A stretch of 40,567 nucleotides of DNA from the NCBI GenBank assembly GCA_031265105.1, contig JAISDC010000230.1:1-40567 (forward strand). Reading direction: 5' to 3'. The stretch is from Verrucomicrobiales bacterium. Its GTDB lineage: Bacteria; Verrucomicrobiota; Verrucomicrobiia; Methylacidiphilales; JAAUTS01. A program made the position numbers and the translations under genes. Position 1 is the stretch's first letter, and each line of letters begins with the position of its first letter. The notes under the pieces were generated by a model. It did not search any database. It was not told the origin of the DNA and saw only the letters and a program-made list of their open reading frames with translations. Positions 4,954-40,566 of this stretch are shown piece by piece.

Positions 4954-5020
4954 CACCACGAAGACACGAAGGCACGAAGGTTAAGCAAAAAATCCTTCGT
5001 GCCTTCGGGTCTTGGTGGTG
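4954..5020. repeat. Hairpin element with 8-nt-periodic arms (CACGAAGR family), followed by an orphan arm of a related family at about 5033-5048
   Basis: 27-nt arms CACCACGAAGACACGAAGGCACGAAGG (4954-4980) and its inverse (4994-5020), 2 mismatches, 13-nt A/T spacer. Lies between convergent genes. Confidence 0.9.
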
Positions 5021-6277: not shown

Positions 6278-6355
6278 TTTTCACCACGAAGGCACGAAGG
6301 GAGACAGTTTATAAAAATAAACAAACTGTAGCCCTTCGTGTCTTCGTGGTGAAAA
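6278..6355. repeat. Hairpin element, CACGAAGR family
   Basis: 24-nt arms TTTTCACCACGAAGGCACGAAGGG (6278-6301) and inverse (6332-6355), 1 mismatch, with an inner ACAGTTT/AAACTGT stem. Confidence 0.9.
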
Positions 6356-25025: not shown

Positions 25026-26663
25026 TTAGTAATCCATCCCGCCCATGCCGCCGCCGCCCGGAGGCATTGCCGGAGCTTTTTCCTTTTCAGGGGCGTCCGT
25101 GACAATGGCTTCCGTTGTCAACAACAGGCCGCTGATGCTGGCCGCGTTTTGCAGGGCGGTCCGCGTCACTTTCGTCGGGTCCACGACGCCGGCTTTTACG
25201 AGGTCTTCGTATTGCTCGGTGGCCACGTTGTAGCCTTCGGCGCTCTTGCGCTTTTTCACTTCTTGCACGACGATGCTGCCGTCCACGCCCGCATTGTCAG
25301 CGAGGGTGCGGAGCGGTTGCTCAATCGCGCGGTTGACGATTTGCGCGCCGATGAGCTGGTCTTCGTCGGTCAGCTTCAGCGCTTCAATCGCTTTTTGCGC
25401 GCGGATGAGCGCGGTGCCGCCACCGGGGACGATGCCTTCCTCGACCGCCGCGCGGGTGGCGTGCAGGGCGTCTTCGACGCGGGCTTTCTTTTCCTTCATC
25501 TCGGTCTCGGTCGCGGCGCCGACGTTGATGACGGCCACGCCACCGGCGAGTTTCGCCAGGCGTTCTTGCAATTTCTCGCGGTCGTAGTCGCTGGTGGTCT
25601 CTTCAATCTGGCGGCGGATTTGACCCACGCGCCCTTGAATGTCAGCGTTCTTGCCGCCGCCTTCGATGATGGTGGTGTTTTCCTTGTCAATGACGATGCG
25701 CTTGGCTTTGCCGAGGTCGTCGATGCCGGTGTTCTCCAGCTTGATGCCGAGGTCTTCGCTCAGCAGCTTGCCGCCGGTCAGCACGGCGATGTCTTCGAGA
25801 ATCGCCTTGCGCCGGTCGCCGAAGCCGGGGGCTTTGACGGCGGCCACTTGCAGCGTGCCGCGCAGTTTGTTCACCACCAGCGTCGCGAGCGCCTCGCCCT
25901 CGACTTCTTCCGCGATGATGAGCAGCGGTTTGCCGCTCTTGGCGACTTTCTCGAGCACGGGGAGCAAGTCCTTCATGCTGGAGATTTTTTTCTCGTTGAT
26001 GAGGATGTAGGCGTTCTCCAACACGGCTTCCTGCGCCTCGGCGTCGGTAACGAAGTAGGGCGAGAGGTAACCTTTGTCGAACTGCATGCCCTCGACCACT
26101 TCCAGCGAGGTCTCGATGGATTTGGCTTCCTCGACCGTGACGGTGCCGTCTTTGCCGACCTTGTCCAGCGCGTCGGCGATGATTTCACCGACGGTGTGGT
26201 CCCAGTTGGCGCTGACGGTGGCGACTTGCTTGATTTCCTCTTTATCCTTGACTTTCTTGGAAATCTTCGCGAGTTCCGTGACGACGACTTCGACGGCTTT
26301 GTCAATGCCGCGCTTGAGGTCGGTCGGGTTGGCGCCGGCGGTGACGTGTTTCAAGCCGGACTTGTAGATGGCTTCTGCCAACACGGTCGCGGTCGTGGTG
26401 CCGTCACCGGCGATGTCGCTGGTTTTGCTGGCGACTTCGCGGACGAGTTGGGCGCCGATATTTTCATAACGGTCTTCCAACTCGATTTCCTTCGCCACGG
26501 TCACGCCGTCCTTGGTGATGGTCGGTGAGCCGAATTTTTTGTCGAGGACGACGTTGCGTCCGCCGGGACCCATCGTGGCTTTCACCGCGCGGGCGAGTTT
26601 TTCCACGCCGCGCAGGAGACCCTGGCGGGCGGCTTCTTCGAATAATAACTGTTTTGCTGCCAT
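25026..26663 (-). CDS. groL: Chaperonin GroEL
   Basis: [46 protein letters not shown] and GGM tail. Confidence 0.99.
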
Positions 26664-26687
26664 AGTGTGTGTTTTCCTTTCTTGAAT

Positions 26688-26984
26688 TTATGCGATTACG
26701 CCGAGGATATCGTCCTCGCGCAAGATGAGATACTTGTCGCCGTCGAGAGTGACCTCGGTGCCGCCGTATTTGCTATACAACACGCGGTCGCCTTTGCTCA
26801 CCTCGAACGGAATGACTTTGCCACTCTCGTCTTTTTTACCAGTACCGAGGGCGACGATGGTGCCTTCCTGCGGTTTTTCCTTCGCGGTATCGGGGATGAT
26901 GATACCGCCCTTCTTCACTTCCTGCTCCTCGATGGGTTCGACCAACACGCGGTCGCCAACGGGTTTGAACTTAATGTTTGCCAT
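26688..26984 (-). CDS. groS: Co-chaperonin GroES
   Basis: [25 protein letters not shown] and YSKYGGTE. Confidence 0.98.
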
Positions 26985-27027
26985 AAGTTACTTTTTTCTT
27001 TCTTGTTATCGTTAGTTTTTGTTTTAG

Positions 27028-27068
27028 TCAACACCAGCGGCAGCGGAGCCGCTGATGGTCACGAAATT
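27028..27068. repeat. 41-bp hairpin direct repeat, copy R1
   Basis: TCAACACCAGCGGCAGCGGAGCCGCTGATGGTCACGAAATT; 38/41 identical to R2; contains the KilA-N gene stop. Confidence 0.92.
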
Positions 27069-27919
27069 ATTTGTGGTTTCTCCTTCAATAGTTTCATTCC
27101 TTGGTTTCCCATGAGCGATTTCATTTGTGTAATCGCCACGTTGTTTAATTGTACCAGTCGCTCGCCTTGCGGTAAACTGTGGCGAACGAGCAGGGCGTTG
27201 ACGCTTTCCATGTTTGAGAGCACCACGAGTTGTTCCAACGCGGCGAAGTCGCGGATGTTGCCTTTTTCGCCGGGGTTGTCATCGCGCCATTGCTTCGCTG
27301 TTTTGCCGAACAGAGCCACGTTCAGCAAGTCGGCTTCATTGGCATAGACAGTGCTGATTTGTTTTTTGGTGACGAGTTGCGGGATGATGCATTCCTTGAT
27401 GGCGTCAGTGTGGATGCGGTAATTGATTTTGGAAAGTGTGCGTTGCAAATTCCATTCGAGCGAAAGCCGTTGGTTTTCTTCTCGTTTAAGACGCTTAAAT
27501 TCAGTGACGAGGAAAAGTTCAAATTCCGCCGAAATCCATGCGGCGAATTTAAAGGCAATATCGGAATGGGCAAATGTACCTCCACCATAGCGACCTGACT
27601 TTGAAATCAAGCCAATGGCATTGGTTTCGCTAATCCATTTTTGCGGTGACATCCAAAAATGTGGTTTGGCGGACTCATTTTTAAACCCCTCATAAATGTG
27701 GGGTTTAAAATTTGGGTTGTTTAGCTTTTCCCACAACCCGATATACTCAATCGTGCTGTAGGTGCGAAGCCAAAGGCTGATAACCTGCGACGGACTTTCG
27801 TCGTTGCGGTATCTTGCCATGTCGGTGAGCGAAATATAATCTTCCTTCTCTTTTGAGAACAAGACTATTTTCGTCCCCTGCACAGTTATGGTTTCCTTCT
27901 TCGCCACATTATTCTCCAT
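27059..27919 (-). CDS. KilA-N domain protein
   Basis: EDYISLTDMARY, WLRTYSTIEYIGLWEKLNNPNFK, SPQKWI, SKSGRYGGGTFAHSDIAFKFAAWIS and LSKINYRIHTDAIK. Confidence 0.92.
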   Translation of the reverse strand: MENNVAKKETITVQGTKIVLFSKEKEDYISLTDMARYRNDESPSQVISLWLRTYSTIEYIGLWEKLNNPNFKPHIYEGFKNESAKPHFWMSPQKWISETNAIGLISKSGRYGGGTFAHSDIAFKFAAWISAEFELFLVTEFKRLKREENQRLSLEWNLQRTLSKINYRIHTDAIKECIIPQLVTKKQISTVYANEADLLNVALFGKTAKQWRDDNPGEKGNIRDFAALEQLVVLSNMESVNALLVRHSLPQGERLVQLNNVAITQMKSLMGNQGMKLLKEKPQIIS

Positions 27920-27927
27920 TGCCAACT

Positions 27928-27955
27928 TTAAAGTGGTCAAATTCGACCACTTTAA
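27928..27955. promoter_or_regulatory. 28-bp near-perfect palindrome upstream of the KilA-N gene
   Basis: TTAAAGTGGTC-AAATTC-GACCACTTTAA, lying 8 nt upstream of the ATG at 27919. Confidence 0.7.
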
Positions 27956-27967
27956 TTTTTCTTCTTA

Positions 27968-28008
27968 TCACCATCAGCGGCAACGGAGCCGCTGATGGTC
28001 ACGAAATT
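27968..28008. repeat. 41-bp hairpin direct repeat, copy R2
   Basis: TCACCATCAGCGGCAACGGAGCCGCTGATGGTCACGAAATT; perfect 12-bp stem with a 6-nt loop. Confidence 0.92.
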
Positions 28009-28027
28009 TGTTTTTATTTTTACAAAA

Positions 28028-29074
28028 TTATTTTTCCTTGTTGCTCAGTTTAGTGGTTTGCTCCGCCAGTTCAATCGCCTGCTGTAATTTTTGCTCCAGT
28101 AATTTTTTTTCCGGCAACTGCGTCATGTATTCCGCCACTTTGATTTGTCCGGGATGGTCGAGCAGCAAATAGTTGATTTGCTCAGGCGATTTTTCGCTGC
28201 ACAAAATCAACCCCACGGGCGGGTTCTCGCCCTCCCTCAAATCGTTGCGTTCGAGCCAGCGCAAGTACAATTCCATTTGCCCCTTGTAATCGGCTTTGAA
28301 TTTTCCGAGCTTCAAATCAATCGCCACCAAACACCGCAAGCCGCGATGATAAAACAGCAAATCCAGGTAATAATCTTCATTGTCAATGACAAGTCGTTTT
28401 TGGCGGCCGACAAAGGTGAAATCCGCGCCCATTTCCACGATGAAATTTTGCAGGTTCCGCAAAATAGACGACTCCAAATCTTTCTCGCTGAAGGTGTCTT
28501 TTAAGCCTAGAAAATCGAGGAAATAGGGGTCGCGGAAAACCAAATCAGGCGTGAGTTTTTTCTCATTTTTCAGCGCAGCCAAATCATTGGTGATGGTCAG
28601 CGCCGGTTTTTTGCTAATCGCCGTCCGCTCGTAAAGCATACTGTCCACGCGCTCTTGCAACGTGCGAACACTCCAATGTTCGTGAATGCACATTTGCGTG
28701 TAAAAGTCACGTTTTAGGCTGTCTTCGATGTAAATGAGGTTGCGGATGTGTGTCCAGGTCAATTGTGCACTCAGTGAGTGCACAATTGGCTCTTCTAGAA
28801 CTAACTCATTGAACCTAATGAAGTTATGTAAATTTCTTTTTGAAAAACCCTGGCCGTAACGACGGGTTAGTTCCGCGCTCAACTCTTTGATAACGGTCTT
28901 GCCATAATCAGCTTTTTCGTGCTTCAAAACGCGGTCATTTATCTGCTTACCGATATGCCAATACAAAACCGTCAATTCACTGTTGACCGTAACGGCAACT
29001 TTGCGCCGCGCGCTGTCAATCAGCGAAACGATGGACTGAAGCAATTCGCTTCCGGTTGTTTGTATCTGGCTCAT
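28028..29074 (-). CDS. YhcG / DUF1016 family PD-(D/E)xK nuclease-domain protein
   Basis: VNSELTVLYWHIG, YGQGFSKRNL, LTWTH, WSVRTL, RDPYFLDFL, DLLFYHRGLRCLVAIDLK, GQMELYL and ENPPVGLILC. Confidence 0.94.
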   Translation of the reverse strand: MSQIQTTGSELLQSIVSLIDSARRKVAVTVNSELTVLYWHIGKQINDRVLKHEKADYGKTVIKELSAELTRRYGQGFSKRNLHNFIRFNELVLEEPIVHSLSAQLTWTHIRNLIYIEDSLKRDFYTQMCIHEHWSVRTLQERVDSMLYERTAISKKPALTITNDLAALKNEKKLTPDLVFRDPYFLDFLGLKDTFSEKDLESSILRNLQNFIVEMGADFTFVGRQKRLVIDNEDYYLDLLFYHRGLRCLVAIDLKLGKFKADYKGQMELYLRWLERNDLREGENPPVGLILCSEKSPEQINYLLLDHPGQIKVAEYMTQLPEKKLLEQKLQQAIELAEQTTKLSNKEK

Positions 29075-29095
29075 TTTTTAATCAATTTTTTCTTG

Positions 29096-29136
29096 TCATC
29101 GTCAGCGGCAGTGGAGTCGCTGAGGGTCACGAAATT
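29096..29136. repeat. 41-bp hairpin direct repeat, copy R3
   Basis: TCATCGTCAGCGGCAGTGGAGTCGCTGAGGGTCACGAAATT; 35/41 identical to R2. Confidence 0.9.
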
Positions 29137-29377
29137 ATTTTTTGTTTTTGTCACGTAAATATCCTTCAAATATCTCGGTTATGTTCCTGCCAATAAGCAC
29201 CGCCGACGCCAAAATGCTTATGCTAACCATTATTCCGACACAGGCTAACAGTGGATTACTTCGCCATGCCGTAACCCATGCAAACATAAAACTTCCTCCC
29301 ATGGCAAAAGCTCCAGATATTACCAGCCATTTCATAAACTTTGAGTTTTGAATGTTCATTTTTTGTCCGCTAATCAT
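29135..29377 (-). CDS. Small two-TM hypothetical membrane protein
   Basis: AT-rich 80-aa ORF filling the space between dnaK and R3, co-oriented with the operon, with two hydrophobic segments. Confidence 0.6.
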   Translation of the reverse strand: MISGQKMNIQNSKFMKWLVISGAFAMGGSFMFAWVTAWRSNPLLACVGIMVSISILASAVLIGRNITEIFEGYLRDKNKK

Positions 29378-29416
29378 GCTACTAGCTTTTGATTTGCGTG
29401 ATTAGCGGACTCTTGG

Positions 29417-31360
29417 TTATTTCTTCTTATCATCATCCACAATCTCCGCGTCAATCACATCATCGTCAGCGGACTTCGCCGACTGCGGCTCACCGTCAGC
29501 GGGCGCGGCACCGGCAGCGGCACCGCCATGTTGCGCGTTCACATTCGCGGACGCTTGCTTGTACAACTCCGTCGAAACCTCCTGAATCTTCACCGTCAGC
29601 GCCTCGGTCGCCGACTTGATAGCGTCGCTGTCCTCACCCTTGAGAGTCTCGCGCAACTTGCCGACCAAATCCTCAACAGCCTTCTTGCCGTCCTCGCCAA
29701 TCTTGTCACCATTATCCTTCACCAACTTCTCCGCCTGGAACGCCAAGTTGTCGCCCTGATTGCGAATCTCCACCTTCTCCTTCGCCTTCTTGTCATCCTC
29801 AGCGTGCGCCTCGGCCTCCTTCACCATCCGCTCAATCTCGCTCTTGTCCAACCCGCTGCTGCCGGTGATGGAAATCTTCTGCTCCTTGTTCGTCCCCAAA
29901 TCCTTGGCGCTGACGTTGAGGATGCCGTTGGCGTCAATGTCAAACGTCACCTCGATTTGCGGCACCCCGCGCGGCGCCGGCGGAATGCCATCCAGATGAA
30001 ACTTGCCCAGCGACTTGTTATCGCGCGACAACGGCCGCTCGCCCTGCAAAATGTGAATTTCCACGCCCGGCTGACTGTCCGACGCCGTGCTGAACACATT
30101 GTTCTTCTTGGTCGGAATCGTCGTATTGCGCGGAATCATCGGCGTCGACTGGCCGCCTAACGTCTCAATACTCAGCGTCAGCGGCGTCACATCCAGCAAC
30201 AACACATCATCCACCTCGCCGCGCAACACACCGCCCTGCACCGCCGCGCCAATCGCGACCACCTCGTCCGGGTTCACGCCCTTGTGCGGCTCCTTGCCCA
30301 CGATGCGCCGCGCGATTTCCAAAATCTTCGGCATCCGCGTCATGCCGCCGACCAGCACCAATTCATTGATGCCACTGGCAGCGAGCTTCGCGTCGCGCAA
30401 ACACGCCTCGACCGGCTTGATGGTTCGCTCCGCCAGCGCCTCGGTCAGTTGCTCCAACTTCGCGCGCGTCAGCTTCAGTTGAATATGCTTCGGCCCGGTC
30501 TGGTCCGCCGTGATGAACGGCAAATTAATCTCGAACTCCTGCGACGACGACAGCGCGATTTTCGCCTTCTCCGCCTCCTCCTTGATGCGCTGCATGGCGT
30601 CCGACTGACTGTGCAAATCAATGCCGCTGTCCTTCTTGAACTCGCTGACGATGTGGTCAATCAGCGCGTTGTCCCAGTCATCGCCGCCGAGATGCGTGTC
30701 ACCGTTAGTGGCCAGCACCTCGAACACCCCGTCAGCGATGGACAACGCCGAAATATCGAACGTCCCGCCGCCGAGGTCATACACCGCGATTTTCTCATCC
30801 TTGGTCTTTTCGAGACCATAAGCCAACGACGCCGCCGTCGGCTCATTAATAATCCGCAACACCTCAAGCCCGGCAATCTTCCCCGCATCCTTCGTCGCGT
30901 GCCGCTGACTATCATTAAAATAAGCGGGCACCGTAATCACCGCCTGCGTAATCTTCTCGCCCAATTTCGCCTCAGCATCAGCCTTCAACTTGGACAAAAT
31001 AAAAGAAGAAATTTCCTCCGGCGTATAAACCTTCGCCTCCCCGCTGACCGTGACCTCCACCGCCGCCGCCCCATTCTTCCCCTCGACGACCTTATACGGC
31101 AACCGTTTAATCTCCTCCCCAATCTCCGAAAACTTCCGTCCAATCAACCGCTTCACCGAAAAAACCGTATTTTTTGAATTCGTCACCGCCTGACGTTTCG
31201 CCGCCTGTCCGACGAGTCGTTCCCCATTCTTAGTGAACGCCACCACCGACGGCGTAGTCCGCGCCCCCTCGGCATTCTCAAGAACGACCGCCTTCCCACC
31301 CTCCATAACCGCCATGCACGAATTAGTCGTGCCCAAATCAATACCCAAAACTTTACTCAT
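29417..31360 (-). CDS. dnaK: Molecular chaperone DnaK
   Basis: [45 protein letters not shown] and [15 protein letters not shown]. Confidence 0.99.
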
Positions 31361-31410
31361 AAAATAAACTCCTATAGCCGTAAGAAACGGCTGTTGTTGC
31401 CTACTATATC

Positions 31411-31426
31411 GCAAATGGCGTGCCAA
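31411..31426 (-). promoter_or_regulatory. Sigma-54 (-24/-12) promoter of dnaK-groESL
   Basis: Minus strand reads TTGGCACGCCATTTGC, matching TGGCAC-N5-TTGC, 50 nt upstream of the dnaK ATG. Confidence 0.8.
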
Positions 31427-31452
31427 GGTTGGTTTGAGAAAATAACGCTGAT

Positions 31453-31465
31453 AATCAACATGTTA
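31453..31465. promoter_or_regulatory. IHF-like binding site
   Basis: AATCAACATGTTA matches WATCAANNNNTTR and lies just upstream of the sigma-54 promoter. Confidence 0.55.
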
Positions 31466-31744
31466 TGAAATTCATGGCAAAATCCAAGTGCGACAATAAT
31501 AACGCACAAGAGACATAATGACCCTTTTAATAAGAGATGTACCTAACTCACGCACCCATTAAAGGGTGCGACCATAAATAAGACAATTTCCTTACTTAAA
31601 CCATTGTTTCAACTCACACATCCACGAAGGATATGACTTGACCACTTTAGCAGTTTTTTTTCAAAGGCAAGCGCCGAAATCTTATTGATAAATCGTCTGA
31701 TTTTTGTTTAATGGATTAAGGAAGGATAAGTAAATGGAAGCTAA

Positions 31745-32589
31745 AAATCTGTATATAATTTTAAGTATGTGTAACGTAAGTCGGATGAGGAAAGGTCGAC
31801 AGTACCCCAGTGATATCAGCCGAACGCAATTTGCGGAGATCAAACCACTATTGGAAAGCGCACGGAAAAAGACCCGCCCACGCGAGGTGGATTTATACGA
31901 AGTGTTCTGTGCGGTGCTGTATGTGCTGCGCAGTGGGTGCCAGTGGCGGATGCTTCCCGATGGGTTCCCCAAGTGGCGCACGGTTTATTCCTACTGGCAA
32001 ATCTGGAATGCCGTTAACGATACTGAGAGCCTGTTACCACAGGCCCTTAAAAAAATCGGTTGGCGCGGCCCGCGTTCGCCTTGGGCGCAACGCCCAGCCC
32101 AGCCTACTAATCATTGACGCCCAGCGCGTGCAGAACACCGACAGCGCCAGACACAAGGGGTATGACGCTGGCAAAAAGGTTGCCGGTAGCAAACGCCATC
32201 TGGCGGTGAATACGCAAGGTTTGCCACATGGCCTCATTGTCACCACCGCCAATGTCACCGACCGCCACGGTGCCACCAAACTGCTGTGCCAGCAACGCAC
32301 CGAGTTACAGTCCATCCACACCAGCCTGACCGATAGCGGCTACAGTGGCACCACTTTCGCCCAGGCGGTCAACCAATGGCTACCACACGCCAAGGTGCAA
32401 ATCGTCAAGCGTTTGGAGCAAGCTACTTTCGTGGTGTTGCCCAAACGCTGGATTGTCGAGCGCACCTTTGCCTGGCAGGATAAACATCGCCGCCGCTGGA
32501 AAAACTGCGAATGCCTCCTCAACTCTTCACTCCAATTCGCCATCCTCGTCCTGTTCGCTTTGCTCCTCAATAGATTATGAACAGGCTCT
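31745..32589 (+). mobile_element. IS5-family insertion sequence with degenerate terminal IRs
   Basis: Left TAAAAATCTGTATATAATT versus right (reverse complement) TAAGAGCCTGTTCATAATC, 13/19 match. TAA on both flanks. Confidence 0.8.
31785..32580 (+). CDS. IS5-family transposase in two frames (probable -1 frameshift)
   Basis: YPSDIS, VLYVLRSGCQWRMLP, A7 tract at 32049-32055 (LKK/SVG), IIDAQ, GYDAGKKVAGSKRH, DSGY and KRWIVERTFAW. Confidence 0.88.
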
Positions 32590-37019: not shown

Positions 37020-37138
37020 CACCACCAAGACACGAAGGCACGAAGGTCTTTTTAACGAAATTTAACCGCTGAGGCGCGGAGACGCGGAGGTTTTTTTAAT
37101 TTTTAAAATAAAACTCCGCGTCTCCGCGTCTCTGCGTT
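37020..37138. repeat. Composite repeat: orphan CACGAAGR arm plus a GACGCGGA-periodic hairpin
   Basis: CACCACCAAGACACGAAGGCACGAAGG (37020-37046), then 25-nt inverted arms 37065-37089 and 37114-37138 (3 mismatches) around an A/T spacer. Lies between convergent genes. Confidence 0.88.
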
Positions 37139-37148
37139 GAATGTGCTG

Positions 37149-40265: not shown

Positions 40266-40387
40266 AACCAAGGGTTCCGTTGTTTTATATTCGTGGCGTC
40301 ACAGACGCGACAATGCCGAAGATAGCAAAGTCATCCAAGCTGACAACATTTTATTTGGCGTCTCGTCATATTTTACCGAGTGTTTTT

Positions 40388-40471
40388 TTTAACCACGGAT
40401 GGACACGAATGGACACGGATTATTTTTTTGTTTTAAATATCCGTGTTCATCGGTGTCCATCCGTGGTTAAA
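40388..40471. repeat. Hairpin element with 10-nt-periodic arms (GGACACGGAT family)
   Basis: 33-nt arms at 40388-40420 and 40439-40471 (3 mismatches) around an 18-nt A/T-rich spacer. Confidence 0.9.
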
Positions 40472-40566
40472 CAACGCTCGGCCCGGTACAGCTGCCACGA
40501 GTTCCACAGGTTGTGCCACAGCACGTAGAACGTCGGGCCGAGCGCCACCAGCGGGTTGGCGTACAC
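40447..40566 (-). CDS. 3' end of a membrane transporter, possibly bile acid:sodium symporter family (partial)
   Basis: Minus frame reads VYANPLVALGPTFYVLWHNLWNSWQLYRAERCLTTDGHR*. The stop lies inside the repeat arm. Confidence 0.55.
   Translation of the reverse strand: MYANPLVALGPTFYVLWHNLWNSWQLYRAERCLTTDGHR

Follow-up and report, generated by a model that had tools for sequence, protein, structure and literature searches.

Why should a coding sequence contain, in frame and within a protein domain, a perfect palindrome of 29 bp? The question is raised by a stretch of 40,567 nt from a Verrucomicrobiales bacterium (assembly GCA_031265105.1, contig JAISDC010000230.1, positions 1 to 40,567), referred to below as the window, in which the palindrome is situated in a yhcG-type gene with a DUF1016_N head domain and a PD-(D/E)xK nuclease domain. 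Judged from the sequences of YhcG relatives, the palindrome points to an undescribed DNA-level signal within the coding sequence. A strand-symmetric dyad is fixed in frame in two unrelated families, YhcG and the KilA-N protein encoded next to it, and is occasionally copied into nearby non-coding DNA.

The palindrome in the yhcG gene of the window

As described in the earlier note, the forward strand reads CAATTGTGCACTCA-G-TGAGTGCACAATTG at 28760-28788, i.e., two 14-nt arms with 100% complementarity and a 1-nt spacer. The gene strand has CAATTGTGCACTCA-C-TGAGTGCACAATTG at this place, which codes for P96-IVHSLSAQL-105 and is immediately followed by TWTH. The gene-strand layout, CAATTGTG-CACT-CA-C-TG-AGTG-CACAATTG, matches the family ends ATTGT/ACAAT, the core CA-S-TG, and a complementary variable middle. 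A chance origin had been judged very unlikely, and this was borne out, since none of 100 dinucleotide-preserving shuffles of the window contained a perfect 14-nt arm with a spacer of 0-3 nt, the shuffle maximum of 13 being reached once. The arm is unique in the genome of 2,995,901 bases (search at up to 1 mismatch). As single-stranded DNA, the palindrome gave folding energies of -13.8 and -14.5 kcal/mol (z -5.0 and -6.9). An Rfam scan of 27000-29500 at E-values up to 10 gave five chance-level matches only, none of them at the palindrome. A possible third half-site at 28683-28696, with 2 mismatches and in another reading frame, was rejected as chance: its pattern was counted 4 times versus 4.04 expected from shuffles, and among the 115 loci scanned the offset copy is present in the window only.

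Conservation of the dyad in YhcG relatives

Relatives were collected as 38 loci of species genomes, 76 of viral contigs, and 80 of metagenome contigs (the best 80 of 584 confirmed). Each locus was anchored on the Trp codon of the motif L-S/T-W-S/T-H, which resulted in 168 distinct segments of 72 nt, the window included, and pairing was counted at one preset geometry without a search for the best centre. At this position, referred to as site B, 142 of the 168 segments have 9-14 of 14 Watson-Crick pairs and the remaining 26 have 2-6; the window is fully paired (14 of 14). Elsewhere in the same genes, a centre has 3.6 pairs on average (standard deviation 1.7), with 0.1% of these centres reaching 10, and site B exceeds every other centre of its gene in 108 of 168 genes. 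The dyad centre is the first base of codon 5 in the motif I-V-x-x-L-x-x-Q-L, 18 nt before the Trp codon. At 18 loci, palindromes with 11 or more of 13 pairs lie 1-117 nt upstream of the anchored spot, a displacement that we take to be an alignment offset or the result of short insertions.

The dyad covers pairs 1-13 and ends at pair 14. Conservation concerns the symmetry of the dyad, its AT-rich ends (ATTGT...ACAAT), and the core CA-(C/G)-TG. The five pairs in the middle of each arm may vary freely provided that complementarity persists: pairs 3-7 show all four pair types, and 54 distinct 5-nt arm cores occur among 140 good palindromes. Perfect pairing in pairs 2-12 is found in 53 of these 140, and the other 87 have 1-3 mismatches; such frequent imperfect copies are expected from a tug-of-war between selection on the peptide and selection on the dyad.

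Covariation was analysed in 135 of the 168 segments, aligned without gaps; 15 had been excluded by hand and 18 more to stay within a size limit, so that the sample leans towards the structure. In these 135 rows, 91.7% of the cells are paired, with shuffles giving 67.8 ± 0.7; changes on both sides affect 384 cells versus 122.9 ± 8.8, and controls with slid partners pair in 27-41% of the cells. With 142 of 168 segments palindromic and an excess of double changes, the dyad symmetry and compensatory changes that the earlier note had proposed to look for over many homologues are present. Its description of the segment as a poorly conserved stretch holds in part: only the four x positions of I-V-x-x-L-x-x-Q-L vary freely, whereas I, V, L, Q, and L are majority residues in the 135-sequence alignment. 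The second DUF1016 gene of the genome (339 aa; contig C17, L248 1465-2484), located between glycosyltransferase-like open reading frames (ORFs), also has a palindrome, AAATCTCCAACCA-C-TGGTTGGAGAAAT, at the homologous codon, with 11 of 13 pairs.

Constraint at the DNA level

When the codons were redrawn from each gene's own usage with the peptide kept, pairing at site B dropped to 6.0 from the observed 11.4 of 13 pairs. Since this synonymous redraw halves the pairing, the DNA symmetry is the conserved feature and the peptide follows. Codon usage within the motif is extremely skewed with respect to the same genes as background: Ile codon 1 is ATT in 102 cases and ATC in none (background ATC 36%), Gln codon 8 is CAA in 90 and CAG in 2 cases (background CAG 47%), and Leu codon 9 is TTR in 128 cases and CTN in a single one (background CTN 65%). 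The codon before the centre is xCA in 95, xCG in 27, xCC in 2, and xCT in no case, with a background of 15-29% for A at the third position of Ser, Thr, and Ala codons. Residues covary as V with Q, L (TTR) or F with K, and L (CTN) with E, which tracks base complementarity and not chemistry. Which amino acids occupy the four variable positions of the encoded helix is thus dictated by the DNA rule.

The constraint acts on DNA and not on mRNA. Non-paired cells in pairs 2-12 of the 140 palindromes comprise 19 of G.T, 29 of A.C, and 88 of transversion type. The centre base is C in 104, G in 29, T in 6, and A in 1 of the palindromes, though TTG is synonymous with CTG, and the innermost pair 1, beside the 1-nt centre, is A-T in 100 and G.T in 37 of 168 segments. 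For a structured RNA, G.U favoured over A.C and a free loop of at least 3 nt would be expected, neither of which was observed for the YhcG palindromes. The interchange of C and G at the centre requires that both strands count alike, and together with the missing G.U-type bias this argues for a strand-symmetric DNA feature and not for an mRNA hairpin. There are also base preferences beyond what pairing explains, namely at the centre, where T and A are avoided, and at pair 13, where the T of the right arm is never replaced by C, despite 57 G partners and the synonymous CTG.

Divergence of the palindrome arms

Among 29 independent pairs of closely related genes (at least 75% identical), 26 double-compensated versus 61 single differences were counted, as well as 8 changes of the centre, 5 of them between C and G. 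Furthermore, both arms were replaced as a block in L129/L136 (89% gene identity, four adjacent double changes) and in L056/L060 (92%). As far as these sequences go, double changes, C-G flips, and block changes are consistent with template switching, for which arm homogenisation, spacer inversion, and multinucleotide changes are named as marks in PMC8604942 and bioRxiv 10.1101/2021.04.15.439925. An argument for conversion between repeats is likewise made in PMC6649704.

Additional YhcG-type palindromes

A second in-frame palindrome, site A, is situated 108 nt upstream of site B within a second I-V-x-x-L-x-x-Q-L motif; in 52 of 168 genes, 9 or more of its 13 pairs are formed. The yhcG gene of E. 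coli K-12 (L249 7828-8955) contains three in-frame copies 39 nt apart, with centres at nt 316, 355, and 394, and a fourth, non-coding copy is located 28 nt past the stop codon, between the convergent genes yhcG and nanQ. Non-coding palindromes of the family type are always close to the gene: they were found after the yhcG stop in L169, L109, L110, and L150, just before the start in L118 and L146, and over the last codons in L069. In case of the viral contig L109, yhcG lies between hsdM-like and hsdS-like ORFs, and an identical palindrome of 27 nt occurs in the gene and 45 nt past its stop, approximately 40 nt before the hsdS-like start. In L109 as well as in L169, the identical in-gene and post-stop copies flank the nuclease-encoding part.

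The palindrome of the KilA-N gene

The earlier note had also claimed that the adjacent, unrelated KilA-N gene shows the same design, and the analysis agrees: this gene carries an independent element of the same design as yhcG. The encoded protein matches Pfam KilA-N (PF04383) with 65.8 bits versus a cut-off of 23.8 and the PADLOC candidate PDC-S22 with an E-value of 2.7e-127, which makes it a candidate defence protein only. The arms of its palindrome (27679-27693 and 27696-27710) are 15 nt long and 93% complementary, corresponding to 14 of 16 pairs if even-centred. All 40 distinct segments of the family, the window included (proteins 46-62% identical), have 12-16 of 16 pairs at this site, versus a mean of 4.1 and a maximum of 12 of 16 at other centres of the same genes. 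These segments follow the consensus TTTTAAA-N5-CGAATTCG-N5-TTTAAAA, in which 19 different middles occur, and a synonymous redraw gives 9.5 pairs versus 14.7 observed. A further, non-coding copy precedes the start of the KilA-N gene (Table 1), folds at -10.7 kcal/mol (z -6.2), and matches with its core the in-gene palindrome of the KilA-N allele L212. Flank copies of the KilA-N palindrome were also found in L222 and L237.

That coding palindromes are general in this genome was considered and rejected. A genome scan for arms of at least 12 nt with a spacer of 0-1 nt gave 49 matches, most of them intergenic-looking or at gene starts or contig ends, and clear in-frame palindromes in defined genes were found for yhcG and KilA-N only.

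Domain structure and predicted dimer of YhcG

The YhcG protein of the window matches Pfam DUF1016_N (PF17761) over residues 15-150 with 157.5 bits versus a cut-off of 32.8 (159.8 bits in the genome search), and YhcG_C PDDEXK (PF06250) over residues 179-330 with 178.6 bits versus 32.5. D238 and K255 are invariant in 135 sequences, the window protein reading D253-L-K255. A Foldseek search with the YhcG model gave EndoMS/NucS as the best match of the nuclease domain (E-value 3.3e-5), followed by the Can2 and SduA nucleases. The C-terminal domain is predicted to be a PD-(D/E)xK nuclease whose modelled fold is nearest to EndoMS/NucS. A sequence-profile search of the PDB returned nothing below an E-value of 0.34, and NCBIfam has no family for YhcG, the KilA-N protein, or the small ORF described below. 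YhcG matches the PADLOC candidate PDC-S02 (E-value 1.3e-130), an assignment to defence as a candidate only.

In the AlphaFold2 model, computed from a 135-row alignment and with a mean pLDDT of 80.8, the palindrome-encoded residues 95-104 form a short helix of the head domain between the helices 79-91 and 107-113, which is the structural mapping of the segment that had been proposed. The spacing of the hydrophobic residues I, V, L, and L suggests that the four variable residues of this modelled helix face outwards. A homodimer model passes with a score of 0.64 versus 0.00 for the best of 3 controls, by a mark that was reached by 20 of 30 proteins solved as same-chain pairs and by 1 of 23 solved as single chains; contact agreement among the runs is at least 94% and the partner pLDDT at least 66. 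The modelled interface is symmetric and formed by the head-domain helices 7-49 and 61-73, leaving helix 95-104 free, which supports, but does not show, a pairing of YhcG through the head domain.

Organization of the locus between groES and dnaK

The genes yhcG and KilA-N form a low-GC stretch (0.42-0.49) between groES and dnaK (approximately 0.6). In the same-genus genome G304, dnaK and groES are only about 125 nt apart, and both genes are also adjacent in several relatives of the same family and order; due to this adjacency in relatives, the yhcG/KilA-N island is an insertion. A second genome of the genus, G307 (L251), has KilA-N and lacks yhcG. Its 600-nt spacer between dnaK and KilA-N (L251 900-1510) contains about six closely spaced loose palindromes of both types (Table 1). 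One of them is 93% identical to the yhcG palindrome of the window, the difference being a compensated pair, and the one at 1208-1238 matches the in-gene palindromes of L240 and L242. No yhcG coding remnant was found in this spacer by tblastn. The spacer also contains three tandem GACAGGCAGATTTTT units.

In a related strain (contigs of run X2), yhcG is present without KilA-N and without the small ORF that occupies 29135-29377 (minus strand) of the window. This ORF encodes 80 aa with two hydrophobic stretches, presumably a membrane protein, has no family match, and occurs at the same place in G307. A repeat, TAATTTCGTGACC, together with a hairpin of 9-12 bp follows each of the small genes, i.e., the small membrane ORF, yhcG, and KilA-N, and resembles the sequence after the dnaK stop in the same-genus genome with the empty site. 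In the comparison with run X2, the joints of gain and loss for KilA-N and the small ORF are located at these repeats and not at the palindromes. The locus thus resembles a small array of gene cassettes, each gained and lost separately.

Table 1. Positions of genes, domains, palindromes, and repeats in the window and in locus L251 of genome G307
Feature	Position	Strand	Remarks
yhcG-type gene, 348 aa	28028-29074	-	DUF1016_N head domain and PD-(D/E)xK nuclease domain
DUF1016_N head-domain stretch	28625-29032	-	contains the palindrome; Pfam, AlphaFold2 model
YhcG_C PD-(D/E)xK nuclease-domain stretch	28085-28540	-	residues 179-330; Pfam
Perfect 14+1+14 palindrome, site B of the YhcG family	28760-28788	strandless	encodes P96-L105
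KilA-N domain gene, 286 aa	27059-27919	-	from ATG at 27919; Pfam, PADLOC, start region
In-frame KilA-N palindrome	27679-27710	strandless	gene strand TTTTAAACCCCACATT / TATGAGGGGTTTAAAA; encodes F78-K88
Non-coding KilA-N-type palindrome	27928-27955	strandless	gene strand TTAAAGTGGTCGAATTTGACCACTTTAA; 8 nt upstream of the KilA-N ATG
TAATTTCGTGACC repeat copies	27022-27069, 27962-28009, 29090-29137	-	three places only in the genome
L251 KilA-N-type loose palindromes	921-946, 1208-1238, 1235-1262, near 1445		the one near 1445 degenerate
L251 YhcG-type loose palindromes	1271-1300, 1375-1399

Other repeats and mobile elements were noted apart from this locus. An IS5-like transposase frame at 31734-32580 (plus strand) of the window is split over the overlapping ORFs 31734-32117 and 31810-32580, and represents either a frameshifted copy or programmed frameshifting. 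Long, intergenic-looking inverted repeats are situated at 4954-5020, 6278-6355, 37062-37141, and 40385-40474 of the window, their arms being built of short tandem units (CACGAAGG-like, CGCGGAG-like, and ACGGATGGACACGAATGG-like). A relative with a 33-nt arm on contig C24 was found as well, and these repeats may represent a genome-specific repeat family. The palindrome AAATTCCCCTCTTG-G-CAAGAGGGGAATTT occurs in five copies with nearly equal arms (C276:9843, C125:13131, C33:4789, C2:69646, and C193:10640); it may represent an operator or a dispersed repeat and differs from the palindromes that are linked to genes and covary.

Interpretation of the palindromes

We tentatively favour, with somewhat less than even confidence, a cis-acting DNA site that forms a hairpin or a dyad, is read by the dimeric head domain of the gene's own product, and has its arms maintained by template switching. 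The site would be read either as a hairpin or cruciform or, by a symmetric dimer, as a dyad. The most plausible reader would be the gene's own head domain with its predicted dimer, and the likely use would be control of, or action on, the own locus. By analogy with hairpin-reading proteins, foot and tip of the stem would be recognized while the middle varies, and the arms would be kept alike through template switching during replication or short-patch conversion. Since the middle is free yet obligatorily paired, intra-strand pairing as a hairpin or cruciform, or copying of one arm onto the other, is indicated and not base-by-base reading by a dimer. The earlier note had inferred a mechanism shared across families, with palindromic mini-cassettes specifying a recognition segment or an intragenic self-binding operator. 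A shared DNA-level mechanism is supported by the palindromes of both families, whereas neither of the two functions was established. The predicted symmetric head-domain dimer and the palindromes just before start codons lend indirect support to a self-binding operator, and the block replacement of arms and the loose copies beside genes give hints of a mini-cassette specifying a recognition segment.

Several observations weigh against a site read by the gene's own product. The head domain has no clear Foldseek match: the significant matches align approximately 130 columns and are taken to belong to the C-terminal nuclease domain. One PDC-S02 gene assayed in E. coli B failed to protect its host from T7, T5, or T4 (bioRxiv 10.1101/2024.09.26.614923). 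The window has only one YhcG-type palindrome, its site A being decayed to 3 of 13 pairs, and across the family a non-coding copy within approximately 50 nt of the stop occurs in only 5 of 148 genes. The upstream KilA-N-type copy differs in its middle from the in-gene copy, and the similarity of site A and site B is bimodal, with a mean identity of 5.9 of 10 within a gene and 4.1 between genes. This bimodal comparison rules out that all copies of a locus share one sequence as the target of a locus-specific reader; due to the different middles among the copies of one locus, a sequence-specific reader of the middle is unlikely. Finally, perfect arms, the lack of a wobble bias, block changes, and C-G flips are all predicted by template switching alone, and all were seen.

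The main rival, a doubtful but still considerable possibility, is that the palindrome is a functionless, self-renewing quasi-palindrome, in which partly self-complementary codons of a tolerated helix are copied arm onto arm by template switching and the spacer is flipped. The symmetry would then be a mutational by-product, "parasitic" in the sense proposed for palindromes in the mitochondrial coding sequences of hairworms. Watson-Crick arms without an excess of wobble pairs, the 5 of 8 centre changes between C and G as the signature of spacer inversion, the joint change of adjacent positions on both arms in L129/L136 and L056/L060, and the independent evolution of sites A and B agree with this, and the mechanism itself is published in the sources cited above for template switching and repeat conversion. 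It fits less well that the position is fixed across phyla and in two unrelated families, whereas hairworm repeats are scattered, gained, and lost; that only 53 of 140 copies are perfect, whereas fast conversion should leave few mismatches; that pair 13 and the centre are constrained beyond pairing; and that tightly packed loose copies of both types occur in non-coding DNA without a gene remnant. The block replacements and flips between otherwise close genes are shared with another, unlikely reading, namely recombination or diversification sites, i.e., short, orientation-free patches for sequence exchange among alleles, paralogues, and loose copies, whereby the four variable residues would be rewritten or the downstream part of the gene swapped. 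Loose copies that equal in-gene palindromes of other alleles (the upstream copy of the window and L212; L251 1208-1238 and L240/L242), the identical copies bracketing the nuclease-encoding part in L109 and L169, and the three in-frame copies of E. coli K-12 speak for such an exchange. On the other hand, no recombinase is linked to the palindromes, the boundaries of gain and loss lie at the TAATTTCGTGACC repeat after each gene, most genes have no nearby donor copy, and no palindrome-joined variant occurs in the related-strain contigs compared. A very unlikely, more specific version would have orientation-free mini-cassettes, in which loose copies serve as donors and, through template switching or short-patch conversion, overwrite the four YhcG helix residues as well as the corresponding segment of KilA-N, the DNA dyad being both address and payload.

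An mRNA hairpin by which translation or stability is tuned, the encoded nuclease being potentially toxic, could account for the stable stem, and all copies, including those before starts and after stops, could be part of the gene's own transcript. This is quite unlikely in view of the missing tolerance of G.U (19 G.T versus 29 A.C), the pairing that reaches the centre, where a 1-nt loop cannot form, the interchangeable C and G of the centre, symmetric for DNA but not for an RNA loop, and the lack of an Rfam match in the region scanned. A negligible probability is assigned to chance or a by-product of protein-level conservation alone. The conserved flanking residues I, V, L, Q, and L can have partly self-complementary codons, but no shuffle reached the arm length, the synonymous redraw halves the pairing, and residue pairs follow base complementarity instead of chemistry. 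This explanation is refuted by the family-wide pairing, the redraw, and the covariation.

To our knowledge, signals in nucleic acids that override the protein sequence within genes are rare, and most of them are RNA structures. In the present case it is a dyad at the DNA level that shapes a helix, in a nuclease family that is widespread, uncharacterised, and represented in E. coli K-12, and the unrelated DNA-binding family of the adjacent gene follows this rule as well. No account of such a palindrome for DUF1016 or KilA-N genes emerged from a literature search with subscription journals and supplements outside its coverage. If the gene's own product reads the site, the long-missing DNA substrate of YhcG would be named and a handle on two candidate defence families gained. 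If there is only self-renewing symmetry, this would rank with the clearest examples from bacteria of amino-acid sequence being dictated over deep time by a mutational process, and mini-cassettes, if true, would represent a new kind of targeted diversification in genes of defence islands.

Comparison with known systems

A close counterpart with respect to coding sequence is given by hairworm mitochondria, for which PMC6649704 describes inverted repeats in functional coding sequence with both arms coding and pairing preserved by codon degeneracy; template-switching conversion is suggested there as the force that maintains them. According to the same source, the hairworm repeats are up to 284 bp long, nearly all perfect, scattered, and gained and lost in the mitochondria of one lineage. 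In contrast, the YhcG palindromes are 27-29 bp long, occupy one fixed codon position across bacterial phyla, and covary in their middle; many copies are imperfect, and loose non-coding copies are present beside some genes.

Quasi-palindrome template-switch mutation is also known as the Ripley model. Arm homogenisation, spacer inversion, and multinucleotide changes, as given in PMC8604942 and bioRxiv 10.1101/2021.04.15.439925, all have YhcG counterparts. However, the model describes a mechanism of mutation and not an element, and predicts neither the fixed position in two families nor base preferences at unpaired positions nor clustered loose copies.

REPs are extragenic, occur in high copy number, and carry a GTAG or CGTC tag; they go with an HUH Y1 transposase, their stems vary with a conserved end kept, and they are presumably read as hairpins by a protein. 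The REP/RAYT system (PMC3733652) resembles the YhcG case in its short, gene-tied palindromes with copies beside the gene. In the YhcG case, by contrast, the main copy is in frame, the arm is found only once in the genome, and a PD-(D/E)xK nuclease and a KilA-N protein are the gene products; neither an HUH Y1 transposase nor many dispersed extragenic copies were found to go with the palindrome.

Rickettsia palindromic elements are 100-150 bp long, are inserted in frame in many unrelated genes, and lose their repeat identity over time. Such elements are mentioned in PMC6649704. Common to both is that palindromic DNA is tolerated in ORFs, and the triplet of E. coli K-12 looks like an in-frame multiplication; unlike the Rickettsia elements, the YhcG palindromes are family-specific, fixed in position, and kept symmetric.

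In case of the hairpin-forming attC sites of integrons and the end hairpins of IS200/IS605, structure, foot, and tip are conserved and the stem covaries, attC being located just after the cassette ORF. No integrase, TnpA, or integrase-like ORF was seen in 26000-32000, R-boxes and extrahelical bases not having been searched for. The rare copies just after the yhcG stop are reminiscent of attC, from which the YhcG palindrome differs by the location of its principal copy inside the ORF.

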